Below are positions 1-20,724 of a DNA stretch of 38,810 nucleotides, piece by piece. Position 1 is the first letter of the stretch. Each line of letters begins with the position of its first letter. Below the pieces are notes generated by a model, which saw only the letters and a program-made list of their open reading frames with translations, searched no databases and was not told the DNA's origin. The DNA is from a virus, in the IMG/VR virus record IMGVR_UViG_3300020707_000002. One strand, given 5' to 3'. Both the position numbers and the translations under genes were made by a program.

Positions 1-127
1 CACGTATTATTTTAGTTGTTTTAATCACGGGACAGGAAATAACTATGACTCAATAACAAGAGTCAGAACAATAACCGCAATTATAGGGAAGCGATGAACT
101 ATATAATCTATAATTCCAATACAGGAC
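1..127. repeat. Terminal direct repeat, copy 1 (identical to 38684..38810)
   Basis: Base-by-base comparison: cacgtattattttagttg...ataattccaatacaggac occurs at both ends. Confidence 0.97.
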
Positions 128-543
128 AGATACACCGGACGGGTTCATGTCCTGAAGCATATATCGAAATTCAATGCTTGGGTGGAGAGGAGCTGCTTAT
201 TGGTGATGCGAACCCTTTAACGCAATACGTTCTGGCCGGAGCCGTAACTACATTCACTGAGGCAGAGCAGTCAGCGAAGGACAATCTCACTTATGGCTAC
301 GCATGGGCAATGCCGGAGAGAGCCGTAGTGCAGATACTGACTGATGATGAGATAACCGCTTACCTCGCAACTCAAGCAAGGGCAAAGCGGGATCAGCTAC
401 TCACGTCCTGCGATTGGACACAGACGGCAGATCAATCGTCTGCAATTAAAACACTCTGGCAAACATACCGACAGGCACTAAGGGACGTCACGATACAGAC
501 CGGATTTCCTGAAACAATTGATTGGCCCACGCCGACAGAATAG
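94..543 (+). CDS. Tail-fibre assembly chaperone-like protein (Tfa/DUF4376-like C-terminus)
   Basis: Its ATG overlaps the stop of the 1566-aa fibre gene (ATGA) across the circular junction. The C-terminal pattern RDQLLTSCDWTQ..WQTYRQALRDVT..PETIDWPTP resembles the conserved end of phage tail-fibre assembly proteins. Confidence 0.6.
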   Translation: MNYIIYNSNTGQIHRTGSCPEAYIEIQCLGGEELLIGDANPLTQYVLAGAVTTFTEAEQSAKDNLTYGYAWAMPERAVVQILTDDEITAYLATQARAKRDQLLTSCDWTQTADQSSAIKTLWQTYRQALRDVTIQTGFPETIDWPTPTE

Positions 544-547: not shown

Positions 548-590
548 ACTTTGTCCGCAAAACGCGCATTGCTGGCATGGTACATTTAAG
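548..590 (+). promoter_or_regulatory. Late promoter-like box, copy A (ACTTTGTCCGCAAAACGCGCA, then TACATT/TTTAAG)
   Basis: The 21-nt box at 548..568 is identical to 23317..23337, and 16 nt of it is identical to 18539..18554. A -10-like TACATT lies at 581..586. The element sits 21 nt upstream of the ATG at 611. Confidence 0.6.
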
Positions 591-610
591 CAACACTTAA
601 ACAAGGAACC

Positions 611-1342
611 ATGCCAGCAATCACAAAAGGAACGGAACTTCTAAGACCGCAGGATGCCGGACTGAGTACGCGATATTTCGATTCAATGTCAATCGCCGCC
701 ACCGGAATGCTTATGCCATCCATCGAGACCGGAGGCTGGAAAGAGTGCATCGTCGATCTGACGATCACAGGCTCCGCCGTTATTAGCTACATGGAGAGCA
801 ACGACGGAGTGACATGGACAGGCGTGAACTCAACGCTTAATCTCGCAACTGGAGCCCAGGGAGGGACAGCTAACGCATCAGGAAAATACTCGTTACCACT
901 TGCCGCCAGATTTGCCTCAGTGCAGGTAACCTCATGGACAAGTGGAACCGTATCCATGACCGCACTATTCAACCTGGAGCAAACTATTCTGTTCCAGCAA
1001 GTCAACGCGCAGAGAATACAGCTCGTCACCCCGGCAAAAACCACCCTCTCGACAACCGCCGAAACCGCAATCATACCGGCCTCTGGTGCGGGATTTTACA
1101 ACGACATCGGCTGGCTATTGATGACGAACACCAGCGCAACAGCAACATCTGTGGATATCAGGAGCGCAACAGGCGGGGCCATAATCGCATCGGTAGCACT
1201 ACCAGCCGGAGCGACCGTTTTCCTGGATTTTGTGAGCGTCCTGCTTATCCAGATCGCAGCGAACACTGTGTGGACTGCGCAATTAACAACCGCAGTAACA
1301 GACGTGAGGATCACGGCTGGAGCGTCTAAAAATACGATGTAA
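611..1342 (+). CDS. Hypothetical late protein, Ser/Thr/Ala-rich and probably beta-rich (possible virion-associated protein)
   Basis: 243-aa ORF preceded by aaggaacc, sharing TAATG stop/start overlap with the next gene. No family recognised. Confidence 0.6.
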   Translation: MPAITKGTELLRPQDAGLSTRYFDSMSIAATGMLMPSIETGGWKECIVDLTITGSAVISYMESNDGVTWTGVNSTLNLATGAQGGTANASGKYSLPLAARFASVQVTSWTSGTVSMTALFNLEQTILFQQVNAQRIQLVTPAKTTLSTTAETAIIPASGAGFYNDIGWLLMTNTSATATSVDIRSATGGAIIASVALPAGATVFLDFVSVLLIQIAANTVWTAQLTTAVTDVRITAGASKNTM

Positions 1343-1671
1343 TGCCCCACAAAGTTGTTTTCAGATTAGCCGCTTCGACGGTAGACTGGACGGTTATCGC
1401 TTCAGGGCTGGTGGGATTTTTAGAGCCGGTATTCGGAGCACACCTTGTCAACACGGGAAGCATGATGGCGGGATTTGCCGCCCTGCTGATCGGGGTAGGA
1501 CGGTTTATTGTATTCGTGGCGACAGCAAGGAAGTCAACGGTCGAGACTCGGCAGATGGAAGAGAGGGTTGACCGCGAATCCGTAGGACGGCTCGAAGAAT
1601 TAGCCTGTCGCAATGCCCCTGCCTGCGAAACAAGAAGAGGAATCCACCTCAACAACCAGGAAGAAGAATAA
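1342..1671 (+). CDS. Putative holin (two transmembrane segments, charged C-terminus)
   Basis: Hydrophobic stretches WTVIASGLVGFLEPVFGAHLV and MMAGFAALLIGVGRFIVFVATA are followed by an R/E-rich tail. The gene is directly upstream of, and start/stop-overlapped with, the endolysin gene. Confidence 0.55.
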   Translation: MPHKVVFRLAASTVDWTVIASGLVGFLEPVFGAHLVNTGSMMAGFAALLIGVGRFIVFVATARKSTVETRQMEERVDRESVGRLEELACRNAPACETRRGIHLNNQEEE

Positions 1672-2090
1672 TGATCAACAGCAGAAAGATTGAAGACCTC
1701 CACCCTCACGTACAACCGCTATGCGAAAATTTCTTGTCAGAATGCAAGAAGTCAGGCATTGATATACTGATTACCAGTACTTACAGGGATATCGAGAGCC
1801 AGAACACTCTTTATGCTCAAGGCAGGACGAGGCTGGGGCTAATCGTGACGAATGCAAAAGGCGGGCAGAGCTTCCACAACTACTGTGTGGCTTTCGACAC
1901 CGTGCCAGTCGTGCATGGGAAACCTGACTGGGATAATGAGGACTTGTGGCTGAGTATTGGCCACATCGGTAAATCTTGTGGACTTGACTGGGCTGGCGAC
2001 TGGAAAAGTTTCAAAGAGAAGCCGCACTTTCAATTTAGTGGCGGACTATCAATAAGAGATTTTCAGGCAGGGAAAACCCTTCCTGAGTAA
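1671..2090 (+). CDS. Endolysin, peptidase M15 (VanY/L-alanyl-D-glutamate peptidase-like)
   Basis: Zinc-peptidase motifs are visible: GGQSFHNYCVAFD (H-x6-D) and EKPHFQF. Size and layout resemble small phage M15 endolysins. Confidence 0.85.
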   Translation: MINSRKIEDLHPHVQPLCENFLSECKKSGIDILITSTYRDIESQNTLYAQGRTRLGLIVTNAKGGQSFHNYCVAFDTVPVVHGKPDWDNEDLWLSIGHIGKSCGLDWAGDWKSFKEKPHFQFSGGLSIRDFQAGKTLPE

Positions 2091-2122
2091 TAACAACCAA
2101 CCAACAAAAGGAGAACAACACT

Positions 2123-2422
2123 ATGGACTTTTCAAGCATCTCCGGATTCCTTGCTCCGGTGATTATTTTCGCGCTGGGCGCAGTGAAGGCATTTGCCTAC
2201 GTCAATCAGTACAAGGATAAGCTTGTCCTTGCTGAAAATGCGCTCCAAGCGGTCAAAGCTGGCGCAGATGGTACGCTGTCATTGCTTGGCGAAGTTGTTG
2301 CTGCAAGCGCAGACAACAGCCTGTCTATTGACGAGTTTAATCAGATCGTAAAGACGGCCGCAGACATTCCCGGGGCTATCAAGATTGCTCTTAAAAAGAG
2401 TGCGATTGCTACAGCCGCATGA
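2123..2422 (+). CDS. Membrane-anchored lysis-cassette protein (N-terminal TM; holin/antiholin or spanin-related)
   Basis: Good Shine-Dalgarno sequence (aaaggag). The N-terminal TM is ISGFLAPVIIFALGAVKAFAYV and the rest looks helical. Position is inside the lysis cluster. Confidence 0.5.
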   Translation: MDFSSISGFLAPVIIFALGAVKAFAYVNQYKDKLVLAENALQAVKAGADGTLSLLGEVVAASADNSLSIDEFNQIVKTAADIPGAIKIALKKSAIATAA

Positions 2423-2640
2423 GTGAGTGGATCGCAAAAATAACAGAATCCGCCATGCTCGGACTATGCAAAGCTCTTGCCACACCGGGCGTACTGCTCG
2501 GTTTGGTACGGGCATGGAGGCAGGCAAATGAGCCGGAACAGGTAATCGCAAGTAAACCAACAAAAGACGATGACAACTTTCTTCGGTCGGCACAAAAAGA
2601 CGGCTGGGTTAATATCCCTGTTGTTGATAAGCGCGTGTAG
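2419..2640 (+). CDS. Candidate i-spanin-like membrane protein
   Basis: ATGA overlap with the upstream gene. N-terminal hydrophobic segment AMLGLCKALATPGVLLGLV. Its 3' end overlaps the lipoprotein ORF that follows. Confidence 0.4.
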   Translation: MSEWIAKITESAMLGLCKALATPGVLLGLVRAWRQANEPEQVIASKPTKDDDNFLRSAQKDGWVNIPVVDKRV

Positions 2641-2806
2641 CAGTTCAAGCAGAGTAATGTACCTCGGAAGAGGTACAACCAAGATGGTACAGCTTAGGGA
2701 AACATTGAAGGGTGTGAAAGTGTGGGCTAAAGATTCCACAGGTGTAGCAGTGCCAATGATCGCTGATCTTCCTGAGGGGGGATTTTATCGAGGTGATTTA
2801 AAATAA
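2570..2806 (+). CDS. Candidate o-spanin-like outer-membrane lipoprotein
   Basis: Signal peptide with basic n-region (GRHKK), hydrophobic core and lipobox L-I-S-A-C. It starts inside the preceding ORF in another frame, which is the overlapped spanin architecture. Confidence 0.5.
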   Translation: MTTFFGRHKKTAGLISLLLISACSSSSRVMYLGRGTTKMVQLRETLKGVKVWAKDSTGVAVPMIADLPEGGFYRGDLK

Positions 2807-2840: not shown

Positions 2841-2875
2841 CCTCCGATACGCCATCGGAGGATTTGATTTTTAGC
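2841..2875 (+). terminator. Rho-independent terminator-like hairpin after the lysis cassette
   Basis: 8-bp stem cctccgat / atcggagg (2841..2848 and 2854..2861) with a 5-nt loop, followed by the T-rich atttgattttt. Confidence 0.5.
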
Positions 2876-3143: not shown

Positions 3144-4349
3144 ATGATAAAAGTTGCAGTCCGGTCGCGTACGATTTCCGGAGGTCGGTTATCTCTCTAT
3201 TTGGATTACTGGCCACCCATCAAACTTATGAGCGGGAAGGAGACCAGGCGCGAAAACCTGAAACTCTACTTGTATAGTCGGGCTCGTACCTCACTTGAGA
3301 AAATGCACAATCGTGAAACAGAATCCTTGGCAGAAACAATCCGTTCACGGCGGCAGATTGAAGTTCAATCTTCATCTTACGGCATAACTCGGTACGGGGC
3401 TGATATCCCTGTCGGGGAGTTTCTCGAAGAGCAAACAAAGAAGAGGACGGAAATGTCGCAGGTTTCATGGAACAACATGCTCTATCATGCGAGAGAGCAA
3501 AAGTTCTGGTCGATCCCCATCTCACAGCTCGATGTTGGCCACTGTCTCCGATTTAGATCAGCCTTGGTTGACAAGATCACGAAGAAGGAACTAATGGCGA
3601 GTACCGCTCATGGATACCTGGCTTCTTTTCGCACGGCGATCCGATATGCTTATAAGTCAGGTATTATAGATCACAATCTCGTTGATAGGTTTGACACTAT
3701 CAAACCCTCACAGGCGAAGCGAGAATACCTGTTACTGGAAGAATTGAACCAGCTTATAGCAACACCTGTACGTCCTGAAATCGTCAGGACAGTATCAATC
3801 TTTGCGGCTTTGGCGGGGATGCGGATATCGGACGTGAGGGCCCTGAAATGGGAAAATGTCACGGAATCGGAGGATGGGGGGGCGGTATTAGATTTTATCA
3901 TGGTGAAGATCAAGAAGAGGCACGTACTACCCATCGGGAAGCAAGCAAGGGGATTGATGGGAAAGCGACCAGAGGAAGAAGCTTTGGGCGCAATGGGAAG
4001 ATCAAGTCGGTACATCACAGAGAAAGTTCCGCGTTCAAACAGTTTCGTATGGCCGTGGATCCCGTGCAACGGATATCTAACCGATACGATAGCGAAATGG
4101 GTAAAAGATGCGGGCATAACGAAGCATATCACCATGCACTGCTTCCGCCACACCTACGCCACTTTGCAGTTGTCGGCAGGGACTGATCTGAAAACTCTGT
4201 GTGATCTCTTAGGGCAATCCGATATCAAGACCACTCAGATATATGCAAAAGTGCTGGATGAGAGCAAGGCGCGGGCTGCTAACAGGGTTATCGTTAACTT
4301 AACGGTCGCGCAAGTAAAGGATGAGGACGAAAGCTTAATTAATAACTGA
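3144..4349 (+). CDS. int: Tyrosine recombinase / phage integrase
   Basis: Catalytic signature is visible: AGMRISDVRAL (Arg), HCFRHTYAT (H-x-x-R) and TTQIYAKV (Tyr). The N-terminal RLSLYLDYWPP region resembles the arm-binding/SAM-like N-termini of Bacteroidota/Chlorobiota-type integrases. Confidence 0.9.
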   Translation: MIKVAVRSRTISGGRLSLYLDYWPPIKLMSGKETRRENLKLYLYSRARTSLEKMHNRETESLAETIRSRRQIEVQSSSYGITRYGADIPVGEFLEEQTKKRTEMSQVSWNNMLYHAREQKFWSIPISQLDVGHCLRFRSALVDKITKKELMASTAHGYLASFRTAIRYAYKSGIIDHNLVDRFDTIKPSQAKREYLLLEELNQLIATPVRPEIVRTVSIFAALAGMRISDVRALKWENVTESEDGGAVLDFIMVKIKKRHVLPIGKQARGLMGKRPEEEALGAMGRSSRYITEKVPRSNSFVWPWIPCNGYLTDTIAKWVKDAGITKHITMHCFRHTYATLQLSAGTDLKTLCDLLGQSDIKTTQIYAKVLDESKARAANRVIVNLTVAQVKDEDESLINN

Positions 4350-4449
4350 TTATCTGGACAAGACCAAGATTATGGTTTAAATATTACGCTACTTTCAACA
4401 AGCTATTTTTCATTTTGTGAGATTATTTCACATTATCTTATGTTTCTTC

Positions 4450-6192: not shown

Positions 6193-6514
6193 AACCGGCC
6201 TGGTAGTAGGATGAACTGCATTGTTGTCGTCGGAAATTAAAAATCATCCAATTTCGGAAATTAACAATCACCCGGGCAGCGGATTTAAATTACGTTATTT
6301 CAACGCCCAACGGCGTTCGCCTACGTCCGAGGTGTGTCGGAATGGTGTAATTCGATCACCCCTGAACGTATCGTGCCTGACACTTCAGTGTCCTTTCGTC
6401 TTTCGCACAAAGTACGTACATTATATGCTGAGGTTAGGAGTAAAGACCCTGCACGGCCTTGCGGGGCATAAAATTAAAATCTAAAAATAATAACGGCACT
6501 GCTGAATTTGTCCG

Positions 6515-6576: not shown

Positions 6577-7176
6577 ATGAAAAAAGTATTACTGGCACTA
6601 GCATCGGTTTGTTTATTCGCCACCCCGGCTATGGCAGACTCTCCGTATGTTAGTGTTTCATCTGGCGTAGGGTTACCGAGCAATTCAAGCGTGTCCGCTT
6701 ACGGAGTCACAGTCGATGATGCAATCACATACAAGGCTGGCGTTCCGGTCATTGGCGCAATCGGCCTCAAGGGTGATGGGTACAGGGTTGAAGCGGCTAT
6801 TGGTTATCAGTCCAGTGATGTTGATAAAGCTAACTACGGCTCGGTTCATGTTCCGATATCTGGAGTAAGCGTCTCAATGACCTCTTATATGGCTAACTGT
6901 TACTATGATCTTGGCGGGAAAAACTCAGGTGTGACTCCATACTTCACAGCCGGGCTTGGTGCGGCAAGCCTTAGTTCTGAATATGCCGGGTATTCTTCAG
7001 GAAAAACCGTGTTTGCTTGGCAAGCTGGTGCTGGTGTAGGTTTAAAGGCTTCGGATAATGTAACCCTCGATCTTGGATACCGTTACTTTAAACCTTCGAA
7101 AGTCAACATATTAAATGTCGTTGACCTTACTTCTTCAATCAGCAATATTTTGGTTGGAGTAAGGTACAACTTCTGA
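6577..7176 (+). CDS. Outer-membrane beta-barrel protein (OmpX/Ail/Lom-like small barrel; moron)
   Basis: Signal peptide MKKVLLALASVCLFATPAMA followed by D. Alternating hydrophobic beta-strand pattern with Gly/aromatic girdle residues. The C-terminus GVRYNF ends in Phe, typical of OM barrels. Confidence 0.8.
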   Translation: MKKVLLALASVCLFATPAMADSPYVSVSSGVGLPSNSSVSAYGVTVDDAITYKAGVPVIGAIGLKGDGYRVEAAIGYQSSDVDKANYGSVHVPISGVSVSMTSYMANCYYDLGGKNSGVTPYFTAGLGAASLSSEYAGYSSGKTVFAWQAGAGVGLKASDNVTLDLGYRYFKPSKVNILNVVDLTSSISNILVGVRYNF

Positions 7177-7192
7177 CCTTTTCCGCAGACCA

Positions 7193-7225
7193 GGCCCCGT
7201 TGAGAGACGGGGCCCTGTATTTATA
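7193..7225 (+). terminator. Rho-independent terminator-like hairpin
   Basis: 8-bp GC-rich stem ggccccgt / acggggcc (7193..7200 and 7207..7214), loop tgagag, then ctgtattta. Confidence 0.55.
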
Positions 7226-7251
7226 GGCTTATCAACTTAAATGGGGGGAGC

Positions 7252-8484
7252 ATGGCGGTACTTACTTTTAACCAGGCAGCGAAGATGCAGCTGGCCTCAG
7301 TCTGGTATGGTAATGTTTCAAGTTATGACAGTTCGCATATTACGATCACTGATTATAATGGCGATACTGGGACTTATTACGGGTCATTTAATTATAACGA
7401 AACAGGGCTGTCTGGAGGTGCTGTAACAGGATATGACAGCTATAGTCATTATGCCATCGATTATACTGTCAGAGATGTTAGTTTGGATGCTATGACAGTA
7501 AACCGCTTCCTAAACACTGGAAATGCAATAGGACTCCAGCAGTACGCATTATCCGGTAATGACATTATCACTGGAACTTCAGGAAATGATGTTCTGCTTG
7601 GATGGGGAGGTAATGACGTGTTCTATGGAAACGGTGGGAATGATACCATTGATGGTGGGGAGGGATTTAATACGATTGTTCTTCCCGGGAAAGAGGCATT
7701 TTATACCATCACTCCAAATAGTACAGGGTTCGTTATCAAGAGCTTTGTTAATGTTGATGGGACATTTCCTGTCACTTTGTACCAATGGGCTCCGATTACC
7801 CCAAATAATCCTTCGGGGCAATCAACATTCACCTGGTCAACGTTAACGGACAGCAACTACACTGGAGGCGGTGGATGGTCAACATACGTTCAGAGCAATC
7901 CAGGGACTCCCGGGCTTCAGTTATGGGAGGCAATAAAGAATGTCCCTTCAAATACCAACGATGCGACAACCGTTCTTGATTGGACATCAGGATATTATCT
8001 ATCTATTGCTGGATCGAATAGTGCAACCGGCATCTCTATTACCGAGACTAATATTCAGCAGGTTAAATTTTCAAACCATACCCTCACCATTGATTCTACT
8101 CCAAATGTAAATCTTTTGGAATCCTATAGAATCTATAAAGCAGCTTTTGATCGTGCACCAGATTATGGAGGGTTAGGGTTTTGGTATAATGCAATGAGTC
8201 ATGGTGGTGCATCTTTAAGCGATGTGGCAGGGGAGTTTATCAAAAGCACTGAGTTTAAGGCGATGTATGGCGATAACTCGACTGATTCAAACTTTCTAAC
8301 TCTTCTTTATCAACATGTGTTAGGTCGTACACCAGATCAGGGGGGATTCGATTTTTGGATAACTGCTTTACACACCGATACACGTGCCAATGTACTTGTA
8401 CAGTTTTCCGAGTCAGGAGAGAATATCGCCAATGTCGCAGGGGTTGTGTCACACGGAATAATTTATGAAGCTTATACCGGGTGA
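7252..8484 (+). CDS. Calcium-binding RTX-repeat / DUF4214 protein carrying a tail-fibre-type repeat module
   Basis: Strong Shine-Dalgarno sequence (ggggggag). GGxGxD-type nonapeptide repeats: GNDIITGTSGNDVLLGWGGNDVFYGNGGNDTIDGGEG. The C-terminal YRIYKAAFDRAPDYGGLGFWYN...LLYQHVLGRTPDQGGFDFW matches the DUF4214 pattern. aa 174-256 resemble the repeats of the 1566-aa fibre. Confidence 0.8.
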   Translation: MAVLTFNQAAKMQLASVWYGNVSSYDSSHITITDYNGDTGTYYGSFNYNETGLSGGAVTGYDSYSHYAIDYTVRDVSLDAMTVNRFLNTGNAIGLQQYALSGNDIITGTSGNDVLLGWGGNDVFYGNGGNDTIDGGEGFNTIVLPGKEAFYTITPNSTGFVIKSFVNVDGTFPVTLYQWAPITPNNPSGQSTFTWSTLTDSNYTGGGGWSTYVQSNPGTPGLQLWEAIKNVPSNTNDATTVLDWTSGYYLSIAGSNSATGISITETNIQQVKFSNHTLTIDSTPNVNLLESYRIYKAAFDRAPDYGGLGFWYNAMSHGGASLSDVAGEFIKSTEFKAMYGDNSTDSNFLTLLYQHVLGRTPDQGGFDFWITALHTDTRANVLVQFSESGENIANVAGVVSHGIIYEAYTG

Positions 8485-8508
8485 TATAAAAAAAAGTAAC
8501 CCAAATGA

Positions 8509-8536
8509 AGCCCCGGCACTCAACCGGGGCTTTTTC
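8509..8536. terminator. Bidirectional terminator between convergent genes
   Basis: Stem gccccgg / ccggggc (8510..8516 and 8524..8530), flanked by an A-run upstream and ttttt downstream. Confidence 0.7.
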
Positions 8537-8543
8537 GTTACAC

Positions 8544-8831
8544 TCATTGCCCCATAATCTTCTTTACCAACTCTTCAGCCATGCGCCCAATTTCCTCGTG
8601 TCTGTATGAACTCTCACTGACAAGTCCATACTCTTGCCTGATAAAGTCAAGCGTTTCTTGACCAAACCTTGAAAGAAGTCTGTCAAAAGGGAGTTGACTT
8701 TCATCTTTTCTCCAATTGGTTACTGATTGCTTTTTAACACCAAATAAGGCCCCAAAAGCCTCATCCGAACTTACTCCAGCTTTTAATCTTAAGCTGTCAA
8801 TGAGTTCATCTTTGCTCATTTTTTTTGCCAT
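8544..8831 (-). CDS. CI-like repressor (small Cro/CI-type HTH protein, no peptidase domain)
   Basis: The only convincing minus-strand gene, and divergent from the early operon. ALFGVKKQSVTNWRK is a typical Cro/CI-type HTH recognition segment. Start chosen at MAKKMSKD (8831); the longer 8930 start would run through the switch promoters. Confidence 0.65.
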   Translation of the reverse strand: MAKKMSKDELIDSLRLKAGVSSDEAFGALFGVKKQSVTNWRKDESQLPFDRLLSRFGQETLDFIRQEYGLVSESSYRHEEIGRMAEELVKKIMGQ

Positions 8832-8846
8832 GACGGTAAATTTTGT

Positions 8847-8875
8847 TTGACTTTTGACAGAAATATCTTTACTAT
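8847..8875 (+). promoter_or_regulatory. Early rightward promoter candidate (TTGACT-N17-TACTAT)
   Basis: Hexamers at 8847..8852 and 8870..8875 with an exact 17-nt spacer, in the divergent intergenic region. An 8-bp palindrome CTGTACAG lies immediately downstream. Confidence 0.55.
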
Positions 8876-8922
8876 AAAGCTGTACAGGAGTTGTGCTGAT
8901 TGATAACAGAATATAAACAGGC

Positions 8923-9171
8923 ATGAGCATAAAAAATTCAAAGGTGTTGCTGAGCAGGGGGACGGCTCGGGAGGTGTATAAACGACTGAAGACAGCAGGG
9001 GAGGTGATTTCCTATATGGGCGTTTATAAACGACTTCTGCGAGAAAGCCACCTCCCAACAATGAAAATCGCTGAAGAGATCGAGAAGAGAAAGGAGAAGG
9101 AGCGAGAGGATTTCGCGAGGACAAAGAAAAGGATCAGAAACGCAGTAACCAAACAGGAGGAGGAAAAATGA
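8923..9171 (+). CDS. Cro-position early protein (basic, K/E-rich C-terminus)
   Basis: First gene of the rightward operon, divergent from the repressor. No clear family. Confidence 0.5.
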   Translation: MSIKNSKVLLSRGTAREVYKRLKTAGEVISYMGVYKRLLRESHLPTMKIAEEIEKRKEKEREDFARTKKRIRNAVTKQEEEK

Positions 9172-9251
9172 GCAGTTGTCCGCAGAAGAGCATCATTGCG
9201 ACACCGGAAGGGAAGCCTTGTTTTATCGAATCAAAGTAAACACTAACAGCT

Positions 9252-9596
9252 ATGGGAGTAATGGAAGATATCCTGAAAGCTCAACTGGAAATGATAAATG
9301 AGGTCAGGGAGCTTAAAGACGAGGTCAGGGAGCTGAAGGGCGCGGTTCCTGTCGAGAACGGCGAAGAGCTGCTTACGGCAAGGGCGTGTGCTGAAGTCAT
9401 GAAGTCAACGCCCAGATGGATCATTGAGCGATGTAAAGAAGGATCACTCCCTTACATGCTTGTTGGTAATGATTACAGGGTAAAGCGCAGGGAGTTGAAC
9501 GCTTTCATGGTGAAACCGGAGATAGCCAGGGCGAGCGCAAAGATGGACGAAATGAGAAAAGCAAGAAGGGCAAAAACAGCAATAGCGGCGGCTTAA
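9252..9596 (+). CDS. Excisionase-family HTH DNA-binding protein with N-terminal coiled-coil
   Basis: LLTARACAEVMKSTPRWIIERCKEGSLPYMLVGNDYRVKRRELNAFM matches the HTH_17/excisionase-family layout. The N-terminus has the repeated EVRELKDEVRELKG. Confidence 0.6.
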   Translation: MGVMEDILKAQLEMINEVRELKDEVRELKGAVPVENGEELLTARACAEVMKSTPRWIIERCKEGSLPYMLVGNDYRVKRRELNAFMVKPEIARASAKMDEMRKARRAKTAIAAA

Positions 9597-9616
9597 ACAA
9601 TCAAAACAGAGGGAAT

Positions 9617-9775
9617 ATGAAAAATCTACTGGTAACTATCGGGAGGATTATCCGGCTAAGATTCGCCGGCATCAAGTGCTATGAGGTTATAGGATTCGAC
9701 AGCGCGGGGCAGATGATAGTGTATGAGACACCGCGTCCGGATTCCTACAGTATCAAAGAGGATGGTGAGGTATGA
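9617..9775 (+). CDS. Small hypothetical protein (52 aa)
   Basis: ATG preceded by agaggg. It fills an otherwise empty gap and shares ATGA-type overlap with the next small ORF. It falls below the ORF-track length cut-off. Confidence 0.35.
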   Translation: MKNLLVTIGRIIRLRFAGIKCYEVIGFDSAGQMIVYETPRPDSYSIKEDGEV

Positions 9776-9942
9776 CGCACTTCGAGTTCATCAGGTCAGT
9801 GGCAGTGCTGGTGATTATGGGTTTGCTTGTCGGCGTTGAATCCCCATCGATAGCGGTTGTTGTCGGGGGACTGATGGCGTTGGCTCTGGTAGTCGCAGAG
9901 GTATGGCTGGTGGCAAAAGCAGAGAGCCCTTCACGGCAATGA
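9772..9942 (+). CDS. Small membrane protein (56 aa, two hydrophobic segments)
   Basis: Translation by hand: MTHFEFIRSVAVLVIMGLLVGVESPSIAVVVGGLMALALVVAEVWLVAKAESPSRQ. It overlaps the stop of the preceding small ORF. Confidence 0.4.
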   Translation: MTHFEFIRSVAVLVIMGLLVGVESPSIAVVVGGLMALALVVAEVWLVAKAESPSRQ

Positions 9943-9985
9943 GAGGCTCTCTGTAAACAATCAAACCAATAACAAATCTACAAAA

Positions 9986-10684
9986 ATGACAACACAAAAC
10001 GAAATTAACCTCTTTGACGATTTAGCCCCTGTAGAGGTTTCCAACCCGCTGAAAGACCTGGTGGCCGCGAAAGGAAAAGCATCCCTGAGCGACCTCATCC
10101 GGCTCTATCAGGAGATTGAAGAAAAGCTCGTTGAGTCTGGGGGCCTTGCTGACTTCGGCGACCAGATGGCTGCGGTTGAAGAAAAGATCGAGACAAAGCT
10201 TGATAACTGCAAGGGGCTGATTGATTACTGGAAAGGGCAGATCAGCTATCTGGAAGAGCGTGAAAAGACATTCAAGGGCCGAAAGACGGGTATTAAAAAC
10301 GGCATCGAGTGGCTACGCAGCACCATGAAATCAGCATTGCTTCTGACCGGCAAGGAGAAGATCAAGACGATCGAAGGGACGTACTTCTTTACAGCGCCGA
10401 AAACGCCGGTCAAGATCGATGCGGAGAAGATAACTGACAAGTACGATGCAGCACTGAGAAAGATCAATCTCCGGACTCATAATGTGGTGATCACCATTCC
10501 ATCAACCATCCCGGACTTCCAGAAGACTATGGAGGAGTATCTCAAGAGTCCGATAAAAGGATCAAAGATGTCAGTAACAGAGCCTGAGTACGATATCAAA
10601 GGCATTGCTGAACGGTGGACGAAAGGAAACCGCAAATGGCCGGCGTGGTTGACTCCTTCAGAAAAGACATTCACTATCCGATAA
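9986..10684 (+). CDS. Siphovirus Gp157-like protein (recombination-module accessory)
   Basis: Coiled-coil N-terminal half (LIRLYQEIEEKL...EEKIETKLDNCKGLIDYWKGQISYLEEREKTFKGRK) and C-terminal KIKTIEGTYFF..PVKIDAEKI pattern as in the Gp157 family. It sits directly upstream of a recombinase gene. Confidence 0.5.
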   Translation: MTTQNEINLFDDLAPVEVSNPLKDLVAAKGKASLSDLIRLYQEIEEKLVESGGLADFGDQMAAVEEKIETKLDNCKGLIDYWKGQISYLEEREKTFKGRKTGIKNGIEWLRSTMKSALLLTGKEKIKTIEGTYFFTAPKTPVKIDAEKITDKYDAALRKINLRTHNVVITIPSTIPDFQKTMEEYLKSPIKGSKMSVTEPEYDIKGIAERWTKGNRKWPAWLTPSEKTFTIR

Positions 10685-10704
10685 CCAATTAATCAACAAT
10701 TACC

Positions 10705-11760
10705 ATGACACAAGAGCTCGCAGTTCGACAAACAGGAAGCCTCACCTCATACGCACTGCCTTTAGATGAGATAAAAGCACAGGTAAACCTGATTCAGCAT
10801 GTTATGCGCGATGTGATGAAAGACGGAGAGCATTACGGCACAATACCAGGGTGCGGAGATAAAAAGGTACTAAAAAAGTCGGGGTCAGAAAAAATAATGA
10901 TGACGTTTCGCCTGTCGAATGACACGGAAATCGAAGTACTCGACATGCCGAACAATCATAGGGAGTATCGAATCAAGTGCACGCTGTTTTCCCCTGATGG
11001 ATTAAGGCTTGGGACTGGCGTCGGGAGTTGCAGTACGATGGAAGGTAAGTACCGGTATCGGGCTGGGACTGGTGACGTTACCTCAGTGCCAGTGCCCAAA
11101 TCATACTGGGACGCTCGTAATAGCGGTGATATGCAAAAAGCATCGAAAGCATTGAAAGACGCTGCTGCATCCGCGGGAATTGACGGGGAAAAGTTTGGTA
11201 CAAAAAAGGGCGACGCGGGATGGATGATTGCGACGATCATCGATAAGGCTGAGCATGATAACCCTGCCGACTACTACAATACTTGCCTCAAAATGGCGAA
11301 AAAGCGGGCTCTTGTTGATGCGACGCTTACAACTACGGCGGCGAGCGACATTTTCACTCAGGACATTGAGGATGATCCTGACCTTTACCGTAAAGGCGGA
11401 TATCAACCAGCTAATGAAGAGACAAAGAAAGAAGAACCTGCACCTGGTCAGGACGACGCCAAGAAAGAGGCGGCTCCAGTAAAGAAAGAGAAAGCGGATA
11501 AAAAGGATGAGCCGCCGCAAAAGACAGTTCAGGAGCTCCGCAGAGAGAATCCATCCCCTGAAGATGTCGAGAAGTTTAAGGCAGCTGCGCAGAAAGCCAA
11601 AAAACTCTTGACAGATAGCGAAAAGACCGGAATGAATAACGAATTCCGCGCTGGGTACACTGCAACAGGGATCCGGCTTGCGATAGATTTCCTTAATGAA
11701 GTCATAGAGAAGCGGCCAGTCCCACAGCCAGCCACCGATGTGGAAGGAGAGGCAGCATGA
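10705..11760 (+). CDS. Single-strand annealing protein / phage recombinase (RecT/ERF/Rad52-like superfamily) with K/E/P-rich C-terminal extension
   Basis: The segment CLKMAKKRALVDATLTTTAASDIFTQDIEDD resembles the conserved helix plus acidic segment of RecT/ERF-type annealases. Context: Gp157-like gene upstream, SSB and nuclease downstream. Confidence 0.5.
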   Translation: MTQELAVRQTGSLTSYALPLDEIKAQVNLIQHVMRDVMKDGEHYGTIPGCGDKKVLKKSGSEKIMMTFRLSNDTEIEVLDMPNNHREYRIKCTLFSPDGLRLGTGVGSCSTMEGKYRYRAGTGDVTSVPVPKSYWDARNSGDMQKASKALKDAAASAGIDGEKFGTKKGDAGWMIATIIDKAEHDNPADYYNTCLKMAKKRALVDATLTTTAASDIFTQDIEDDPDLYRKGGYQPANEETKKEEPAPGQDDAKKEAAPVKKEKADKKDEPPQKTVQELRRENPSPEDVEKFKAAAQKAKKLLTDSEKTGMNNEFRAGYTATGIRLAIDFLNEVIEKRPVPQPATDVEGEAA

Positions 11761-12023
11761 AGGAGATATGGGAGGTAAGGGAGAGTGGGATCAAGGGAAA
11801 CTTGGCGATATCTGTTAAAGGTAGCCCCGCGCTCGCGGGGCGTGTCGCCACTGTTCCGCATTACGAGGGTAGAAAGGGTCGGCAGAGAAAGATAGCTCAT
11901 TTGATATCCGCCGCGCCGGATCTTCTTGAGGCTCTTGAGTGCTTGATCGAGCTTTATCAGGGACCCGCAACGCAAGAGAATATGGCTATAAGAGCTATCG
12001 AAAAAGCGAGAGGTGAAGCATGA
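11757..12023 (+). CDS. Hypothetical protein (88 aa)
   Basis: ATGA overlaps at both ends. No family recognised. Confidence 0.55.
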   Translation: MKEIWEVRESGIKGNLAISVKGSPALAGRVATVPHYEGRKGRQRKIAHLISAAPDLLEALECLIELYQGPATQENMAIRAIEKARGEA

Positions 12024-12643
12024 TAAAGTGGACTGATGAAATGGTCGACGCGCTGCGAGTATCCTATCCGGATTTAAATTCCCATGAGATAGCCAACAAG
12101 CTTGGCGTGTCACGCGGGGCCGTGAATACAAAAGCTTGTGAGCTTGGTATCAGAAAATCCGAGACGTTTGTAAATGCGCAGCGGGAAAGAGTTGTCGCTG
12201 GTGGAGCAAAGTATCGCTTTAAAAAGGGTGATGTGGCATGGAACAAGGGGAAGAAAGGGTACATCACCGTTACTGATGCCATGAGAGCTACGATGTTCAA
12301 GGCTGGCCATAAGCCGCACAATACGACATGCGACGGGCATATATCAGTGACCATTGATGAGCGGGGAGTTAAACAGCTCAGAATAAGAATCAGCGAAAAG
12401 AACCATGAGTATTTGTCCAGGCATAACTACAGGAAAGCATTTGGGGGAATCCCCCATGGTTACTGTATAAAATTTAAGGACGGGAACACACTGAACTGCG
12501 ATCCAGACAATCTCGAGTGCGTATCGCGGACGCTGCTTATGCTGCTCAACTCTAAGCATGGGTATACCCGAGATATCGCCGAAGTAAAAGAAGTCATCTG
12601 TTATATCAAACAAGAAATCAAGGAGCCTACCGGTGAAAAATAA
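12020..12643 (+). CDS. HNH_3-like homing-endonuclease-related DNA-binding protein (catalytic His apparently substituted)
   Basis: N-terminal HTH-like SHEIANKLGVSRGAVNTKACELG. The C-terminal GIPHGYCIKFKDGNTLNCDPDNLECVS aligns with the HNH_3 pattern (iP.G..v.H.dGn..nN...NL), but Phe occupies the first His position. Confidence 0.55.
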   Translation: MIKWTDEMVDALRVSYPDLNSHEIANKLGVSRGAVNTKACELGIRKSETFVNAQRERVVAGGAKYRFKKGDVAWNKGKKGYITVTDAMRATMFKAGHKPHNTTCDGHISVTIDERGVKQLRIRISEKNHEYLSRHNYRKAFGGIPHGYCIKFKDGNTLNCDPDNLECVSRTLLMLLNSKHGYTRDIAEVKEVICYIKQEIKEPTGEK

Positions 12644-12884
12644 AATGATCGACCTGAGAGACCATCTTTTTGAAGTGCTTGAGCGACTCAAAGACCCTGA
12701 ACCGGAAACGCCGATGGATATAGATACAGCCAAAGCCATAATTGGCGTTGCTGATACCATCATTGACTCAGCGCGGGTGGAGAATGACTATTTGAAGCAG
12801 TTGTCGAACCTTTACGCAAATGGGCTAGGATCATCATTACCGAAAAGCAGCCTTTTCCTTTTGGAATCCGATACTAAAAACTAA
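12633..12884 (+). CDS. Hypothetical protein (83 aa)
   Basis: GTG start 7 nt after aaggag. TAATG overlap with the primase gene. Confidence 0.5.
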   Translation: MKNKMIDLRDHLFEVLERLKDPEPETPMDIDTAKAIIGVADTIIDSARVENDYLKQLSNLYANGLGSSLPKSSLFLLESDTKN

Positions 12885-15154
12885 TGCCAATCGTTTCGAT
12901 TTTCAAGACTTGCTTCTCAACCGTTCCTGTGGAGGATATCGAGTTTCTTGATGTCCTCCACAGGATAAAAGGTGGATACTGGCAAGACGAATACTTCGCT
13001 TATCGGTCAGTGCTCAAGAAATATGGCCCGTCAGCTCCGGAGACGAAAAAGGCGAAAGAAGGACTTTCCTGTTTCATCCCGTCAGGCAGGTTTTCCGGTG
13101 GGAGAAAGCGATCAAACCTCGCAGAGCACTCTGGAATACTGAATATCGATATCGACGCAAAGCACAACATAGGCATCGATCTACCTGAGTTCAAGGATAC
13201 GCTTTTCGGTGACAAGCATATTTATGCCGGTCATTTATCCGTGTCTGGGCTGGGGATAAGTCTATACGTCAAGATCAACCCGGAAAAGCATATCGAGAGC
13301 TTTTTGGCGATGGAGAGGTATTTCGCTGAAGAGTTCAAGATCATTATTGATCCCTCATGTAAGGACGTGACCAGGCTTCGGTTTGTCGGGTATGATACTG
13401 ACCTCTACATCAACGAGCGGGCTATGCGGTGGGGGAAGTATGAGAAAAAAGAGGCTGTAGATTTCCAGCGGAAAAAGGTGGCCTGCTGCAACTCTGATAT
13501 TGAGTACGTCCTGCAGCAGATCGAGCGTGACCGGCGTGACATTACGACCAACTACGCCGACGGAGTGAAGATTGCTTTCGCTTTCAATACAGAGTTTGGC
13601 GAGGCGGGCGTTGACTTTTTCCAGAGAGTTTGCCAGTTCCGAAAAGGGTACGATCCAGCAAAGACGGCGCTGAAATACAAGCAGTGCAACGGATCAAAAG
13701 CGGTTTCAATCTCTTCATTTTTCTGGATTGCCCGGCAGGGTGGGTACGAGATCACCGCGCCGAGGTCAAAGGAGATCATCAAGACTGCGAAGTATGCTAA
13801 GAAAGCGGTCGCTGCCGGGGTCGAACCGGAAGCATCGGCAAAAGAAGGGGCTGTTCGCTACGCTGTTGAAATGCAGGGGGAGTCGCCGGAAAACGCGAAG
13901 AAGCTGGTTGACGCGGTTTTTGATGGTGCCGCAGCAGGAGAAAAGGAAAGCGCTGACGAGATCTATGAGTTCATCAAGCGGGACATCGAAGGCAAGCGAC
14001 TGCGCCGGAACCTGATCAACGACTGCGTTGAGTACGAAAATGAAAAGATCGCTGACCGGACACTGTGCAAGTTCATGGTCGAGCTGCGGTCGAAGTATGG
14101 TTCATCGAAGGTTAAGCGGGATGTGCTGCTTGAGCTTATCGAGACCTCAGCGAAGGATTACAACCCTATTCTTGAGTTTTTTGAAAAGAACCGCCATAAG
14201 AGTCCGAAAGGATGCATTGATGCTGTGATTGATGCGATTTCAGGTCGCGTGGATGCTCTTGCAGAAGGAGAGGCAAAAGAGTTTCGCCGGTACTTTATTC
14301 GCAAATGGCTGCTGGGTATGGTTTCCGGATGGCATGGCACGTATTCCCTGCTTACCCTGGTACTTGTCGGTGACCAGGGAACTGGAAAAAGTAAGTGGTT
14401 CAGAGGTCTGTTTCCCGAAGACTTGCAGCCGTACTACGCGGAAGCAAAAATGGATGGCGACAAAGATCATTTGACGCTGATGACCACAAAGGCGCTGATC
14501 CTCGATGATGAGTTTTCAGGAAAGAGCAGAAGAGAAGAGGCGCTCTTTAAAGAGATATCCAGCAAGCAGGAAATTACCATCAGGAAACCGTATGCCCGCA
14601 TGGCGGAAACGCACCGGCGTATTGCAGCACTTGCCGGAACAACAAACGACGAAAACATCAAGGGAGATTTGACCGGAAACCGACGAATCCTTGCGGTGCA
14701 TGTGTCGTCCATCGATTGGGAGCTTTACAACTCAGTTGACAAGGTTGATTTGATGGTCGAGCTGTACAAGGAATGGAAACGCGTTGGGGACGGCTGGATG
14801 CTTTCCGGAGAGGACATTGCTATGCTTAACGGAGCGACTGACCGGTACCGCGAGATATGCCCTGAAGAGGAATTGCTTGTCAAGTATTTCGATCCACCTG
14901 AAAAGTCGCTTCCTGATGCGTTTATGAGCAATACAGAGATCTTTAATGAGCTGTCAGGGGAGCTGAATGGAAGTTCAATTCGGCTCAGCCAAAGGAAGCT
15001 TGGGCAGGTGCTCAAGCAGTTCGGGTATGTGTACAAATCAGTAAGAGGGGCGTCAATGCCGAGATACGCCTACAATATCCAAAGGATGATTAACCCTGAA
15101 GCAAGCCCCACAGGCCAAGAACATTACAGAGAAACTGGGCACTTGCCTTTTTAA
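12884..15154 (+). CDS. DNA primase/helicase, VirE family (BT4734-like N-terminal domain plus P-loop NTPase)
   Basis: The N-terminal NIDIDAKHN...VSGLGISLYVKI...DVTRLRFVGYD resembles the BT4734/VirE_N primase-like domain. Walker A is LVGDQGTGKS and Walker B is ALILDDEF in the C-terminal half. Confidence 0.8.
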   Translation: MPIVSIFKTCFSTVPVEDIEFLDVLHRIKGGYWQDEYFAYRSVLKKYGPSAPETKKAKEGLSCFIPSGRFSGGRKRSNLAEHSGILNIDIDAKHNIGIDLPEFKDTLFGDKHIYAGHLSVSGLGISLYVKINPEKHIESFLAMERYFAEEFKIIIDPSCKDVTRLRFVGYDTDLYINERAMRWGKYEKKEAVDFQRKKVACCNSDIEYVLQQIERDRRDITTNYADGVKIAFAFNTEFGEAGVDFFQRVCQFRKGYDPAKTALKYKQCNGSKAVSISSFFWIARQGGYEITAPRSKEIIKTAKYAKKAVAAGVEPEASAKEGAVRYAVEMQGESPENAKKLVDAVFDGAAAGEKESADEIYEFIKRDIEGKRLRRNLINDCVEYENEKIADRTLCKFMVELRSKYGSSKVKRDVLLELIETSAKDYNPILEFFEKNRHKSPKGCIDAVIDAISGRVDALAEGEAKEFRRYFIRKWLLGMVSGWHGTYSLLTLVLVGDQGTGKSKWFRGLFPEDLQPYYAEAKMDGDKDHLTLMTTKALILDDEFSGKSRREEALFKEISSKQEITIRKPYARMAETHRRIAALAGTTNDENIKGDLTGNRRILAVHVSSIDWELYNSVDKVDLMVELYKEWKRVGDGWMLSGEDIAMLNGATDRYREICPEEELLVKYFDPPEKSLPDAFMSNTEIFNELSGELNGSSIRLSQRKLGQVLKQFGYVYKSVRGASMPRYAYNIQRMINPEASPTGQEHYRETGHLPF

Positions 15155-15171
15155 AAAAAATCGGAGATCAG

Positions 15172-15393
15172 ATGAGTATTAGAGCAGAGAGAAAGCCGGG
15201 CGAAGGAGATCAAGACTGGATGGTACGGACATATCCCGGTTGGAGGAATCTCTCCTCAGCCTATTCGCGCGTAAGTCCTATTGAGAGGTATACCTCTGAA
15301 GAGGAAGATGAAGAGGATGAAGGAAGGACAGAGTACGCTGAATTCAAAATGCTTGGGAAAGTGAGGCAGTGTCAAAGAAAAAGACAGAAATAG
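15172..15393 (+). CDS. Hypothetical protein (73 aa)
   Basis: ggag lies 5 nt upstream of the ATG. Acidic EEEDEEDE tract. Coding status uncertain. Confidence 0.35.
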   Translation: MSIRAERKPGEGDQDWMVRTYPGWRNLSSAYSRVSPIERYTSEEEDEEDEGRTEYAEFKMLGKVRQCQRKRQK

Positions 15394-15399
15394 TGAGAT

Positions 15400-15625
15400 G
15401 TATAACACTACAAGAAAGGGAGGTACTACAGAAACGACTACAACCAACCCTTTACAGTATAACTATATATCTCTCTTGTAGTAGGATAGTAATAATAAAT
15501 AGAGGAAAAAGAGTCTAAAATAAAAACTACACACATGATCACACACACACATCATTATGAAAAAGGAAAAGTTTCAAAAAAGGGCCTACAAGGCACTACA
15601 AGGCACTACGATCCACTACAATTGA
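15400..15625. repeat. Iteron-like ACTACA array with AT-rich core and (CA)6 tract: candidate replication origin
   Basis: ACTACA occurs at 15407, 15425, 15437, 15526, 15595 and 15615. Variants are ACTACG at 15605, CCTACA at 15585 and an inverted copy at 15477..15482. The last four are phased 10 bp apart (ctacaaggcactacaaggcactacgatccactaca). The AT-rich stretch runs 15483..15530. Confidence 0.6.
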
Positions 15626-15631
15626 AATGAA

Positions 15632-17574: not shown

Positions 17575-17582
17575 AAACAACC

Positions 17583-18014
17583 ATGGCAAAAGGCGTGAAC
17601 AAGGTAATTCTCTTGGGCAGACTTGGCGGCGATCCGGAGAGCAGACCGGCTGGGACAACGACAGTGGCAAACTTCACGATAGCAACAAGCGAGAAGTACA
17701 AGGACAAACAGGATCAGTGGCAGGAGAGGACTGAGTGGCATCGGATAGTAGCATGGGGGAAGCTGGCGGATATTTGCGCCCAGTACCTCCATAAAGGGTC
17801 ACAGGTATACGTTGAGGGGAAGCTACAGACTCGAAGCTGGGAAAAAGAAGGAGTAAAGCAGTACACAACAGAGGTCGTGCTAAGCGAAATGCAAATGCTC
17901 GATGGAAAGCCTCAAAACAACGGACAGGATCAGCCATACAACCAACCGGCCTCGAATGCCGAGCAGCAAGGGTACTCGACACCGCAGGTAGAAAAGGATG
18001 AACTCCCATTTTAA
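17583..18014 (+). CDS. ssb: Single-stranded DNA-binding protein
   Basis: Canonical OB-fold N-terminus ([15 protein letters not shown]...[13 protein letters not shown]...[19 protein letters not shown]), Gln/Pro-rich linker and acidic tip DELPF. Confidence 0.95.
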
Positions 18015-18687
18015 GCCTGCGAACCAGCGCTCTGGCGACAAAAAAACAGCCTGGGCGCTGGGCTTTTCACACATGACCGACAGAATCGCCTTAAACACCA
18101 TTAAAGAGCCGAGAATGAACAAGGACATCAAGTACAAGATAATTCATGGAACGAGGTGCACCGTCACGGGCACGAAAAACGGGGTAGAGATCGACATGTG
18201 TGTCGGAGCAAAGCAACGATTCAAAGGGAAGAACTACATCGAAGCCGAGCAGCAGATGTGGAACTGGATGCGCCATAAGCCAGGAAAGAAAGGCGGAGGA
18301 CAAGAGATTGAGGATGAAACACGAAAAGCCCTCAGCGCTCTTGATATGCCGAAAGAACACATCAGAGTAAGTGACGGATATGCCAGGCAGCACCCGATAT
18401 ACCGATCAAGCTGGACAGTGAGGCGGAGCCTAGGCCACACCCAAAAAATCTACTTCGGCACATACCGGAACGAGCACGCAGCGAAGGCAGCGAGCATCCG
18501 CCTGTGTGAGCTGATAAATGAAGAGGTTGATAAGCGCCACTTTGTCCGCAAAACAACACCCCACGAAGGGTTACTATTTAAGAAACCAAACCCGAGAAGA
18601 AGGCGATACACACCACAAAGCCAGCAGAGTATCGCCGGAAAAACAGTGGACGGACAAACGATAGCGAAGCAGACCTGGGAGCCATGA
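17998..18687 (+). CDS. Hypothetical DNA-binding protein with AP2-like segment (candidate late regulator)
   Basis: [24 protein letters not shown] resembles the strand-helix core of AP2/integrase-type DNA-binding domains. The true start is uncertain (17998, 18073 or 18115). It is the last gene before the packaging operon. Confidence 0.45.
18539..18582 (+). promoter_or_regulatory. Late promoter-like box, copy C (inside the 3' end of the preceding CDS)
   Basis: ACTTTGTCCGCAAAAC (18539..18554) is identical to copies A and B. It is followed by TACTAT (18572..18577) and TTTAAG (18577..18582). It lies about 240 nt upstream of the terminase genes. Confidence 0.55.
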
Positions 18688-20691: not shown

Positions 20692-20724
20692 AGCGGAATG
20701 GGGTAACAAAAAAAAGAGAACGCA

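Follow-up and report, generated by a model that had tools for sequence, protein, structure and literature searches.

This analysis concerns a sequence box of 16 nucleotides (nt), ACTTTGTCCGCAAAAC, in a viral DNA of 38,810 nt (IMG/VR record IMGVR_UViG_3300020707_000002; the whole stretch is called the window below), and the late promoters of which the box probably forms part. The 16-mer occurs exactly, and always on the plus strand, at positions 548 (box A, 548-563), 18539 (box C, 18539-18554) and 23317 (box B, 23317-23332), the next-best match being one with 3 mismatches on the minus strand (6398-6413). At A and B the identity extends to a 21-mer, ACTTTGTCCGCAAAACGCGCA (548-568 and 23317-23337), of which the first 16 nt are those found at C, as a first-pass annotation of the window had described and an exact, mismatch-tolerant scan confirmed; no third copy of the 21-mer was found at 3 or fewer mismatches. 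The same annotation had held that such a recurrence was not to be expected by chance, and two or more matches were indeed seen in 0 of 100 dinucleotide shuffles. A separate repeat search recovered the same three-copy family (D2). Since the window begins and ends with the same 127 nt (1-127 = 38684-38810), it represents a complete genome of 38,683 base pairs (bp), circular or terminally redundant, and three boxes are thus the count for the whole genome.

Each box is followed on the same strand by a -7-type element that overlaps the sequence TTTAAG. These elements are TACATT at 581-586 with TTTAAG at 585-590 (A), TACTAT at 18572-18577 with TTTAAG at 18577-18582 (C), and TAGATT at 23349-23354 with TTTAAG at 23354-23359 (B). 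The TA of the hexamer lies 17 nt after the 16-mer at A and C and 16 nt after it at B, while the gap from the 21-mer to TTTAAG is 16 nt at A, 17 nt at C and 16 nt at B. Both the hexamers and the distances (16, 16 and 17 nt for A, B and C) had been given correctly in the first-pass annotation, as a reading of the sequence shows. The core of the box, which in box A is TTGTCCGCAAA, occupies 551-561 there.

The claim that one box stands ahead of each late transcription unit agrees with the gene contexts of all three copies, but copy C is placed inside a coding sequence and not in an intergenic gap. Box A lies 63 nt before the ATG of the first lysis-cassette gene and opens late unit A (611-2806, plus strand), which holds an orphan gene of 243 amino acids (aa), a 109-aa gene, an M15 endolysin gene (1671-2090) and small lysis-region genes. 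Box C, which encodes H-F-V-R-K, is found in the 3' part of the candidate activator gene discussed below, an orphan open reading frame (ORF) on the plus strand that encodes 190 aa from M40 (18115-18687, open from 17998) and is the last early gene. Downstream of it, late unit C (18821-23205, plus strand) comprises a gene for a DUF5681 protein and ORFs at the large terminase, portal and MuF positions; these three identities were taken from the Pfam matches of syntenic genes in relatives, and that of DUF5681 from a match in the window itself. Box B is located 83 nt before the protease/scaffold gene, the first of late unit B, where it is followed by the major capsid, head-tail and tail genes (23400-38780, plus strand). 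This unit continues across the circular junction into a tail fibre assembly gene (Phage_tail_APC, 94-543, plus strand), which is its last gene and stops 5 nt before box A.

Terminator-like hairpins end units C and A. The first of them (23224-23243, AGCCCTGCGTAGTCGGGGCT, then TTTTATTACG, with the T run reaching 23253) is on the plus strand between unit C and promoter B, so that box B begins 74 nt past a terminator, in accordance with the placing of this copy just after a hairpin in the first-pass annotation. The second (2841-2861, plus strand) has 8 pairs, 5 of them G-C, and a T-rich tail, ATTTGATTTT, that extends to 2871; it closes unit A ahead of the integrase gene.

The host is a green sulfur bacterium (Chlorobiaceae), which is shown for a relative of the window, L061, and which we infer for the window itself. 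L061 is a prophage whose flanking SAICAR synthase clusters at 90% identity with a protein from a metagenome-assembled genome named 'Chlorobiaceae bacterium', and window positions 1663-2806 have 80% DNA identity to the lysis region of the Chlorobiaceae phage CV-1-33 (L034, 12328-13482). No box was found in CV-1-33 despite the common lysis module and, consequently, the box is not a general element of Chlorobiaceae or of this module. CV-1-33 is otherwise unrelated to the window and P22-like, and the shared lysis module suggests module exchange among phages of green sulfur bacteria.

The promoter grammar of such a host is known from Chlorobaculum tepidum, where differential RNA sequencing described RpoD promoters as TTG-N17-23 followed by a -7 box, TA[ATC][ATC][AT]T, which is closest to the Flavobacterium TTG/TAnnTTTG type; for the extracytoplasmic function (ECF) sigma factors of this species, the motif has AAC at -35 and GTT at -10 (preprint 10.1101/172254). 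The late hexamers TACATT, TACTAT and TAGATT fit the -7 box of Chlorobiaceae RpoD. The -7 motif is present at about 12 of 15 sites when the window and its relatives are considered together, the exceptions being TACCGT in the relatives L035 and L040 and the lack of a TA in L037. By contrast, a regular-expression scan for TTG-N17-23-TAnnWT gave no match in the late gaps 544-610 and 23206-23399, although the same scan found the motif in the early region (8843/8847) and before the gene at 4468. The only upstream TTG at the late promoters is the one inside the box, at 26-27 nt from the TA. Measured against the host -33 TTG, the earlier statement that no proper -35-type element is present is therefore upheld for the intergenic late gaps. 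If transcription starts a few bases past the hexamer, the box would cover about -45 to -30, and the start at promoter A is predicted near 591-594.

Three other assignments of these sequences were considered and rejected. The TTTG of the box as a -33 element fails on spacing (26-27 nt against the 17-23 nt allowed), the box as a -7 element fails because no TA precedes TTTG, and a sigma-54 reading of TGGCAT in the spacer of promoter A fails because this sequence is not conserved in B, in C or in the relatives.

From this arrangement and from the comparisons given below, we consider it probable that the three boxes are the upstream halves of three activator-dependent late promoters (PA, PB and PC) and that the last early gene encodes their activator. 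The phage would be a temperate siphovirus of Chlorobiaceae in which each late promoter keeps a -7 element of the host RpoD type, TAnn(T/A)T and usually TAnnTTT, without the host -33 TTG. An asymmetric box with the core TTGTCYGYAAA would take the place of that TTG at about -45 to -30, and the phage activator would bind the box and recruit or reposition the host RNA polymerase, in a manner akin to class-II activation or to the way in which MotA substitutes for the -35 contact. Three units would be switched on in this way, from PC the packaging genes through MuF, from PB the protease and capsid genes through the tail genes, and from PA the lysis genes. As PC lies in the 3' coding end of the activator gene, the activator and the first late promoter would travel together.

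The same features bear on a different proposal, in which constitutive promoters would use the box to load a Q-like antiterminator, with read-through of downstream terminators then turning on the late genes. The candidate gene does occupy the position of Q in lambdoid phages, being the last early gene, and all genes are co-oriented. However, the box is upstream of the -33 position and not between two promoter elements; promoters that have no -33 element should be weak alone; no terminator separates PA or PB from the first gene, their leaders being about 20 nt and about 45 nt long; and the terminator at 23224 is located upstream, not downstream, of box B. Antitermination of this type thus appears very unlikely.

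The evidence that carries the activator-dependent reading comes mostly from relatives. Homologs of the orphan ORF, found as 9 clusters among 5.8 billion at 46-57% identity, led to the contigs L035-L042; L064 (46%) and L065 (39%) were reached through the representative-library matches P0010 and P0011; and homologs of the 243-aa gene, at 65-77% identity, led to L061-L063. Overall, the protein identity of these relatives to the window ranges from 39 to 77%. A scan of the genome and of related phages with a box motif, which the first-pass annotation had proposed, recovers the three orthologous promoter positions in these diverged relatives: the core TTGTCYGYAAA with its TAnnTTT motif recurs ahead of both the lysis cassette and the protease/capsid genes, and also within the 3' end of the last early gene. 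In the approximately 173 kb that the window and its relatives comprise, the slightly looser TTGTYYGYAAA occurs only at the 14 expected places and always on the coding strand, against about 0.7 matches expected by chance. The idea of an activator-dependent late promoter family that divides the late region into three units is supported by this comparative evidence.

At the individual positions, PA is found before the homolog of the 243-aa gene as ACTTTGTCCGTAAAAC-N17-TACCTTTAAG in L062 and L063 and as TTATTGTCCGTAAAAC-N17-TACCTTTAAG in L061; the leader is conserved, and the spacer matches that of the window at only about 10 of 17 bases. PB is found before the protease gene as ACTTTGTCTGTAAAAC-N16-TAGCTTTTAAG in L035 and as ACTTTGTCCGTAAAAC-N16-TAGCTTTTAAA in L038, so that both have the box, 16 nt and then TAGCTTTTAA(G/A), with upstream flanks that cannot be aligned. 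PC is carried by nine relatives. Where the protease gene is in view (L035 and L038), box B stays directly ahead of it despite inserts that differ. The gap between the MuF and protease genes is, in fact, an insertion hot spot in the relatives (L035, 16414-18780; L036, 16590-20264; L038, 5595-7011), and it contains small genes, including one for a DUF4236 protein, or a BglII restriction-modification pair with MT-A70 and HATPase genes.

This comparison also settles the symmetry of the box. The first-pass annotation had seen a small dyad in TTTG-N4-CAAA, and this part of its description does not stand: in relatives, C11 is changed to T and ACTT to TTAT with no compensating changes. As the dyad is broken without compensation (TTTG..TAAA, ATTG..CAAA), the site must be read as asymmetric and orientation-specific. 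Additionally, variants of the box tend to agree within a genome, with CCGC at all three sites of the window, CCGT found three times in L038 plus L063, and TTATTG in both L036 and L061, which suggests either concerted change or co-evolution with the reader of the box.

Searches beyond these relatives gave little. The exact 16-mer has 31 loci in IMG/VR, and only one of them, L010, is related, being 99% identical to the window. In 17 IMG/VR contigs (L001, L004, L007-L009 and others) of an unrelated virus family, the 16-mer stands in a fixed context, ctaacacgataaacatagtc-ACTTTGTCCGCAAAAC-tcaatag, with no -7 box at the right distance, and its presence there looks like a coincidence. Degenerate scans for box plus hexamer in IMG/VR and in JGI metagenomes returned only near-identical copies (L010, L052 and L060) and chance matches, and a looser scan of IMG/VR with the core returned at least 118 chance matches, none of them with a homolog of the regulator. 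Among species-representative genomes, nothing was found with the regulator alignment or with the alignment of the 243-aa protein, and locus searches of IMG/VR with single proteins gave the 99% copy and one distant protease match, but nothing for the regulator.

The copy inside the candidate activator gene deserves separate attention, as its conservation might be attributed to the protein. Across eight genes, the codons in box C are GTC for V in 7 of 8, CGC for R in 7 of 8 and AAA for K in all 8, whereas 4-5 different codons are in use for other conserved arginines. In the V/R/K codons of the box, the mean synonymous pairwise difference amounts to 0.17, versus 0.50 elsewhere (permutation p = 0.017). 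Furthermore, a TA is found exactly 17 nt past box C in 8 of 9 lineages or relatives, although the encoded peptides differ; the hexamer region at this distance is TACTAT in the window, TAGTTTTG in L036 and L038 and TAGATTTA in L041, a poor TACCGT in L035 and L040, and missing in L037. In L064 the gene stops right after the box, which leaves a perfect -7 box, TAGATTTG, in the intergenic stretch, with 22 nt between it and the ATG of the small terminase gene. The most distant case is L065 (39% identity), where an identical 14-mer, TTTGTCCGTAAATG, is followed by 17 nt and then by TAACTTT (1034-1072). This 14-mer is read as L-L-S-V-N-E, not as F-V-R-K-C, its flanks are unrelated and the next gene starts 22 nt later. 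Given this change of frame, a protein constraint cannot explain the conservation of the box, and the DNA itself must be under selection. A further family member, P0015, has a protein that ends in ..ALLSVKN, and its gene may encode the box in the other frame, as that of L065 does.

The two reading frames also count against the suggestion that recombination or gene conversion inside the phage has multiplied a repeat that has no function. Although A and B share 21 identical bases, and variants tend to match within a genome, as such a process would predict, the box is conserved at three orthologous sites over 39-77% protein identity while its surroundings have diverged, and it is maintained in two frames. 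We regard this suggestion as extremely improbable.

As for the reader of the box, the ORF that the first-pass annotation had named as a candidate regulator (17998..18687) is also the best activator candidate in our analysis. It belongs to a small orphan family, with 13 representatives at E <= 1e-3 among 1.84 billion proteins, and had no Pfam, PHROG or NCBIfam match at the thresholds used. The family proteins have 146-199 aa and isoelectric points (pI) of 9.4-10.5 (10.0 in the window), and their gene always lies between the genes for single-stranded DNA-binding protein (SSB) or replication and the late packaging (terminase) genes, as seen in the window, L035, L036, L038 and L064, with extra intervening genes in some. 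An AlphaFold2 (AF2) model built on a 17-sequence alignment has a mean predicted local distance difference test (pLDDT) score of 84 and consists of a four-stranded sheet plus helix, a second helix, and a three-stranded sheet plus long helix, that is, two sheet-plus-helix units. A first AF2 model was discarded as poor (pLDDT 54), and the fold search made with it was meaningless. With the good model, a fold search of the PDB gave nothing significant, the top matches being Whirly-like MRP1/2 and Pur-alpha at E of about 0.1-0.2, and a PDB sequence search gave only spurious matches to beta-propeller repeats. In BFVD, the top structural matches are a phage 'PrtN pyocin activator' (E 3e-3, probability 0.89) and phage proteins annotated as AP2/ERF (probability 0.77-0.91). 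A role in DNA binding is plausible, and position and sequence properties make this protein the most likely late activator.

The fold and the -7 element bear, in turn, on an explanation that the first-pass annotation had left open, namely that an alternative sigma factor reads the box as its -35-type element, this factor being either of the ECF type and from the host or an unrecognised one encoded by the phage, possibly the orphan protein itself. The box spans the -35/-33 region and keeps a fixed 16-17 nt to its downstream element, like promoters read by sigma factors, and phage late regulators that resemble sigma factors exist, the Ltr proteins of the ArpU/RinA type having been discussed in this regard (PMC3753634). 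Yet the downstream element is the housekeeping TAnnTTT -7 box and not an ECF-type -10, the ECF motif of C. tepidum (AAC/GTT) is unlike the box, a sigma domain was found in 0 of the 30 ORFs scanned, and the AF2 model of the orphan protein is beta-rich, which is not the helical fold of a sigma factor. An alternative sigma factor is unlikely on these grounds; an activator is favoured over it because the -7 box is of the host type, a choice that sequence alone cannot settle.

There are several points that weigh against the activator-dependent reading. The hexamer of PC is poor (TACCGT) in the L035/L040 group and L037 has no TA there, so PC may be weak or inactive in some relatives. These relatives amount to only about 6-8 independent lineages, all of them metagenomic, and the contig pairs L036 plus L061 and L038 plus L063 were assumed to be single phages from their common samples. 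All genes are co-oriented, so transcription that runs on from the early operon could be another source of late gene expression. With regard to the protein, the case for naming it as activator is made from the place of its gene, its basic character, its inheritance together with the box and a fold that is tentative; no structural match in BFVD reaches E <= 0.001, and the global root-mean-square deviation is large. Moreover, an hhalign comparison with a plant AP2 domain gave a probability of 1.7% (KIYFGTY..AAKAAS on RVWLGTF..AALAYD). Finally, a conserved early protein of helix-turn-helix (HTH)/excisionase-like type (9252-9596) is an alternative candidate for binding the box.

At promoter A, DNA and RNA signals overlap. 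An RNA hairpin on the plus strand at 568-622 (-26.3 kcal/mol, z = -6.4) has the spacer and -7 box of PA as its 5' arm, while its 3' arm includes the leader and the start codon at 611. L062 and L061 retain this hairpin, with one compensatory pair, and an RNA that begins at about 591 is unstructured. Thus, read-through RNA from the tail operon may hide the start codon of the gene at 611, which RNA made from PA would not do. A comparable hairpin over the start codon was sought at PB as well, without success (z -0.9 to +1.2). A conserved CTTAAA in leaders of the PA and PB types is the complement of the TTTAAG in the -7 region (window 585-601 and 23353-23381; 9 bp in L035), and the stem that they could form is weak in PB (z -0.9 to -2.1).

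This hairpin is one of the observations behind another proposal, according to which the box binds a protein for some other purpose, such as silencing in the lysogen, packaging, partition or a signal at the RNA level, with hexamers that are incidental or read by the host. In its favour, read-through RNA would contain the box, a strong RNA hairpin encloses PA, and ParB_N genes are found near the regulator gene in L035 and L065. Nevertheless, the immunity region (8480-9300) has no copy of the box, all of the 14-plus sites share one strict orientation and a fixed distance to the -7 element, and no ParB gene is present among the window ORFs scanned. Besides, box B is past a terminator and would be missing from most read-through RNA, and the box forms no conserved structure, its dyad not being maintained. 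Such a role is, in consequence, quite unlikely.

Going beyond the promoters as such, we put forward, with somewhat less than even confidence in the whole, a combined proposal: the orphan protein would represent a structurally new class of late activator that recognises an asymmetric box of about 11-16 bp at the site of the -33 TTG of sigma-A in the Fibrobacteres-Chlorobi-Bacteroidetes (FCB) group and replaces this sigma contact, by a class-II mechanism or one similar to sigma appropriation, in a phylum for which no phage transcription switch is known to have been described; it would be inherited as a cassette with its own promoter in either frame; and the hairpin at PA would make translation dependent on the promoter used.

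The remaining features of the genome are those of a temperate phage map in which all but one of the long genes are on the plus strand (ORF map). The integrase gene, which encodes a Phage_int_SAM_5 domain, is at 3144-4349 on the plus strand. Between it and the repressor-like gene are two moron-like genes (6577-8484), for an outer-membrane beta-barrel protein and an RTX/DUF4214 protein, with a terminator-like hairpin between them (7193-7214). Another terminator-like hairpin, after these genes at 8508-8532, is on the minus strand and hence downstream of the converging HTH repressor-like gene (8544-8819/8930, minus strand), which faces the early promoter TTGACT-N17-TACTAT at 8847. The early and replication genes (9252-18014) encode an excisionase-like HTH protein, Gp157, HNH, VapE primase, helicase, VRR-NUC and SSB proteins. 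Between the candidate activator and DUF5681 genes there is a 37-aa ORF with a CxxC motif (MKLCRKCHDKYGDRW..., window 18700-18813) and no family match. A direct repeat of 29 nt, identical at 27 of 29 positions, has one copy just 3' of the integrase gene (4382-4410) and the other just 3' of the MuF terminator (23247-23275), 42 nt upstream of box B.

Our literature searches found no account of gene timing in phages of green sulfur bacteria, nor of any phage handling the -33/-7 grammar of Chlorobi/Bacteroidota sigma factors. The cis-element described here can be summarised as an 11-base core at a fixed distance from a host-type -7 box, three per genome, with an orphan protein as its probable reader. 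If this is true, a new protein family would be added to the late activators, and an inducible promoter/activator pair would be available for Chlorobaculum genetics. In lake metatranscriptomes, the box would also serve as a sequence signature by which the late operons of these prophages, and hence their lytic activity, could be marked. A promoter inside the activator coding sequence in two frames would be, in addition, a natural example of overlapping selection at the DNA and protein levels.

Several known systems can be compared with this one. In T4, middle promoters keep a -10 of the host type, while the -35 is replaced by an asymmetric phage box that is read by the activator MotA, together with AsiA (sigma appropriation). 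Such a replacement of the -35 contact is the closest mechanistic analogy, with the differences that the T4 box is centred at about -30 and that T4 is lytic and uses it for genes of the middle class; no MotA or AsiA homolog was detected among the window ORFs scanned. PrtN, which activates late-type genes derived from phage tails through P boxes, and the AP2/ERF-like phage proteins are the best structural neighbours of the candidate, at a level below the threshold (BFVD E 3e-3 or worse), but the candidate has no PyocinActivator or AP2 match in Pfam. In lambdoid phages, the Q element is placed inside a constitutive promoter, between its -35 and its -10, and a terminator follows in the leader; neither feature was found here, as regards the leader at PA and PB. 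The housekeeping promoters of Chlorobiaceae and Bacteroidota share the downstream TAnnTTT(G/A/T) with the late promoters, which differ from them in having no TTG at an allowed distance and a conserved box of 11-16 bp in its place.

Phage Mu has four late promoters, including one for lysis, with a -10 but no -35 and with a 16-bp activator site that overlaps the -35 region (PMC2582627). The late promoters of Mu (Plys, PI, PP and Pmom) are similar to those of the window in having a -10-type element without a -35-type one, a site overlapping the -35 region and several copies, one of them for lysis and the others for morphogenesis. By contrast, Mu C, of the Mor/C family, is a dimeric HTH protein that binds an imperfect dyad with its centre at -43.5, whereas here the site is asymmetric and has its centre nearer -37, the candidate has no Mor/C match in Pfam and is predicted to be beta-rich, the host polymerase uses a -33/-7 grammar of the FCB type, and one site is inside the activator gene. 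The Ltr proteins in siphoviruses of Gram-positive bacteria (RinA, ArpU, LtrC and others) bind just upstream of terS and are the only phage factor that the packaging and lysis modules require (PMC3753634). The candidate resembles this superfamily in being small, basic and encoded by the last early gene, before the packaging genes. It has, however, no sequence relationship to it, none of the described families having been matched, and the host belongs to another phylum; in addition, the Ltr systems described centre on one late promoter, which lies upstream of terS and has a repeat region (PMC3753634), in contrast to the three promoters with one non-repeated box each that are found here. On the basis of these comparisons, late control in the window would be best described as a new variant of the Mu-C/Ltr type in an unstudied group of phages and hosts.

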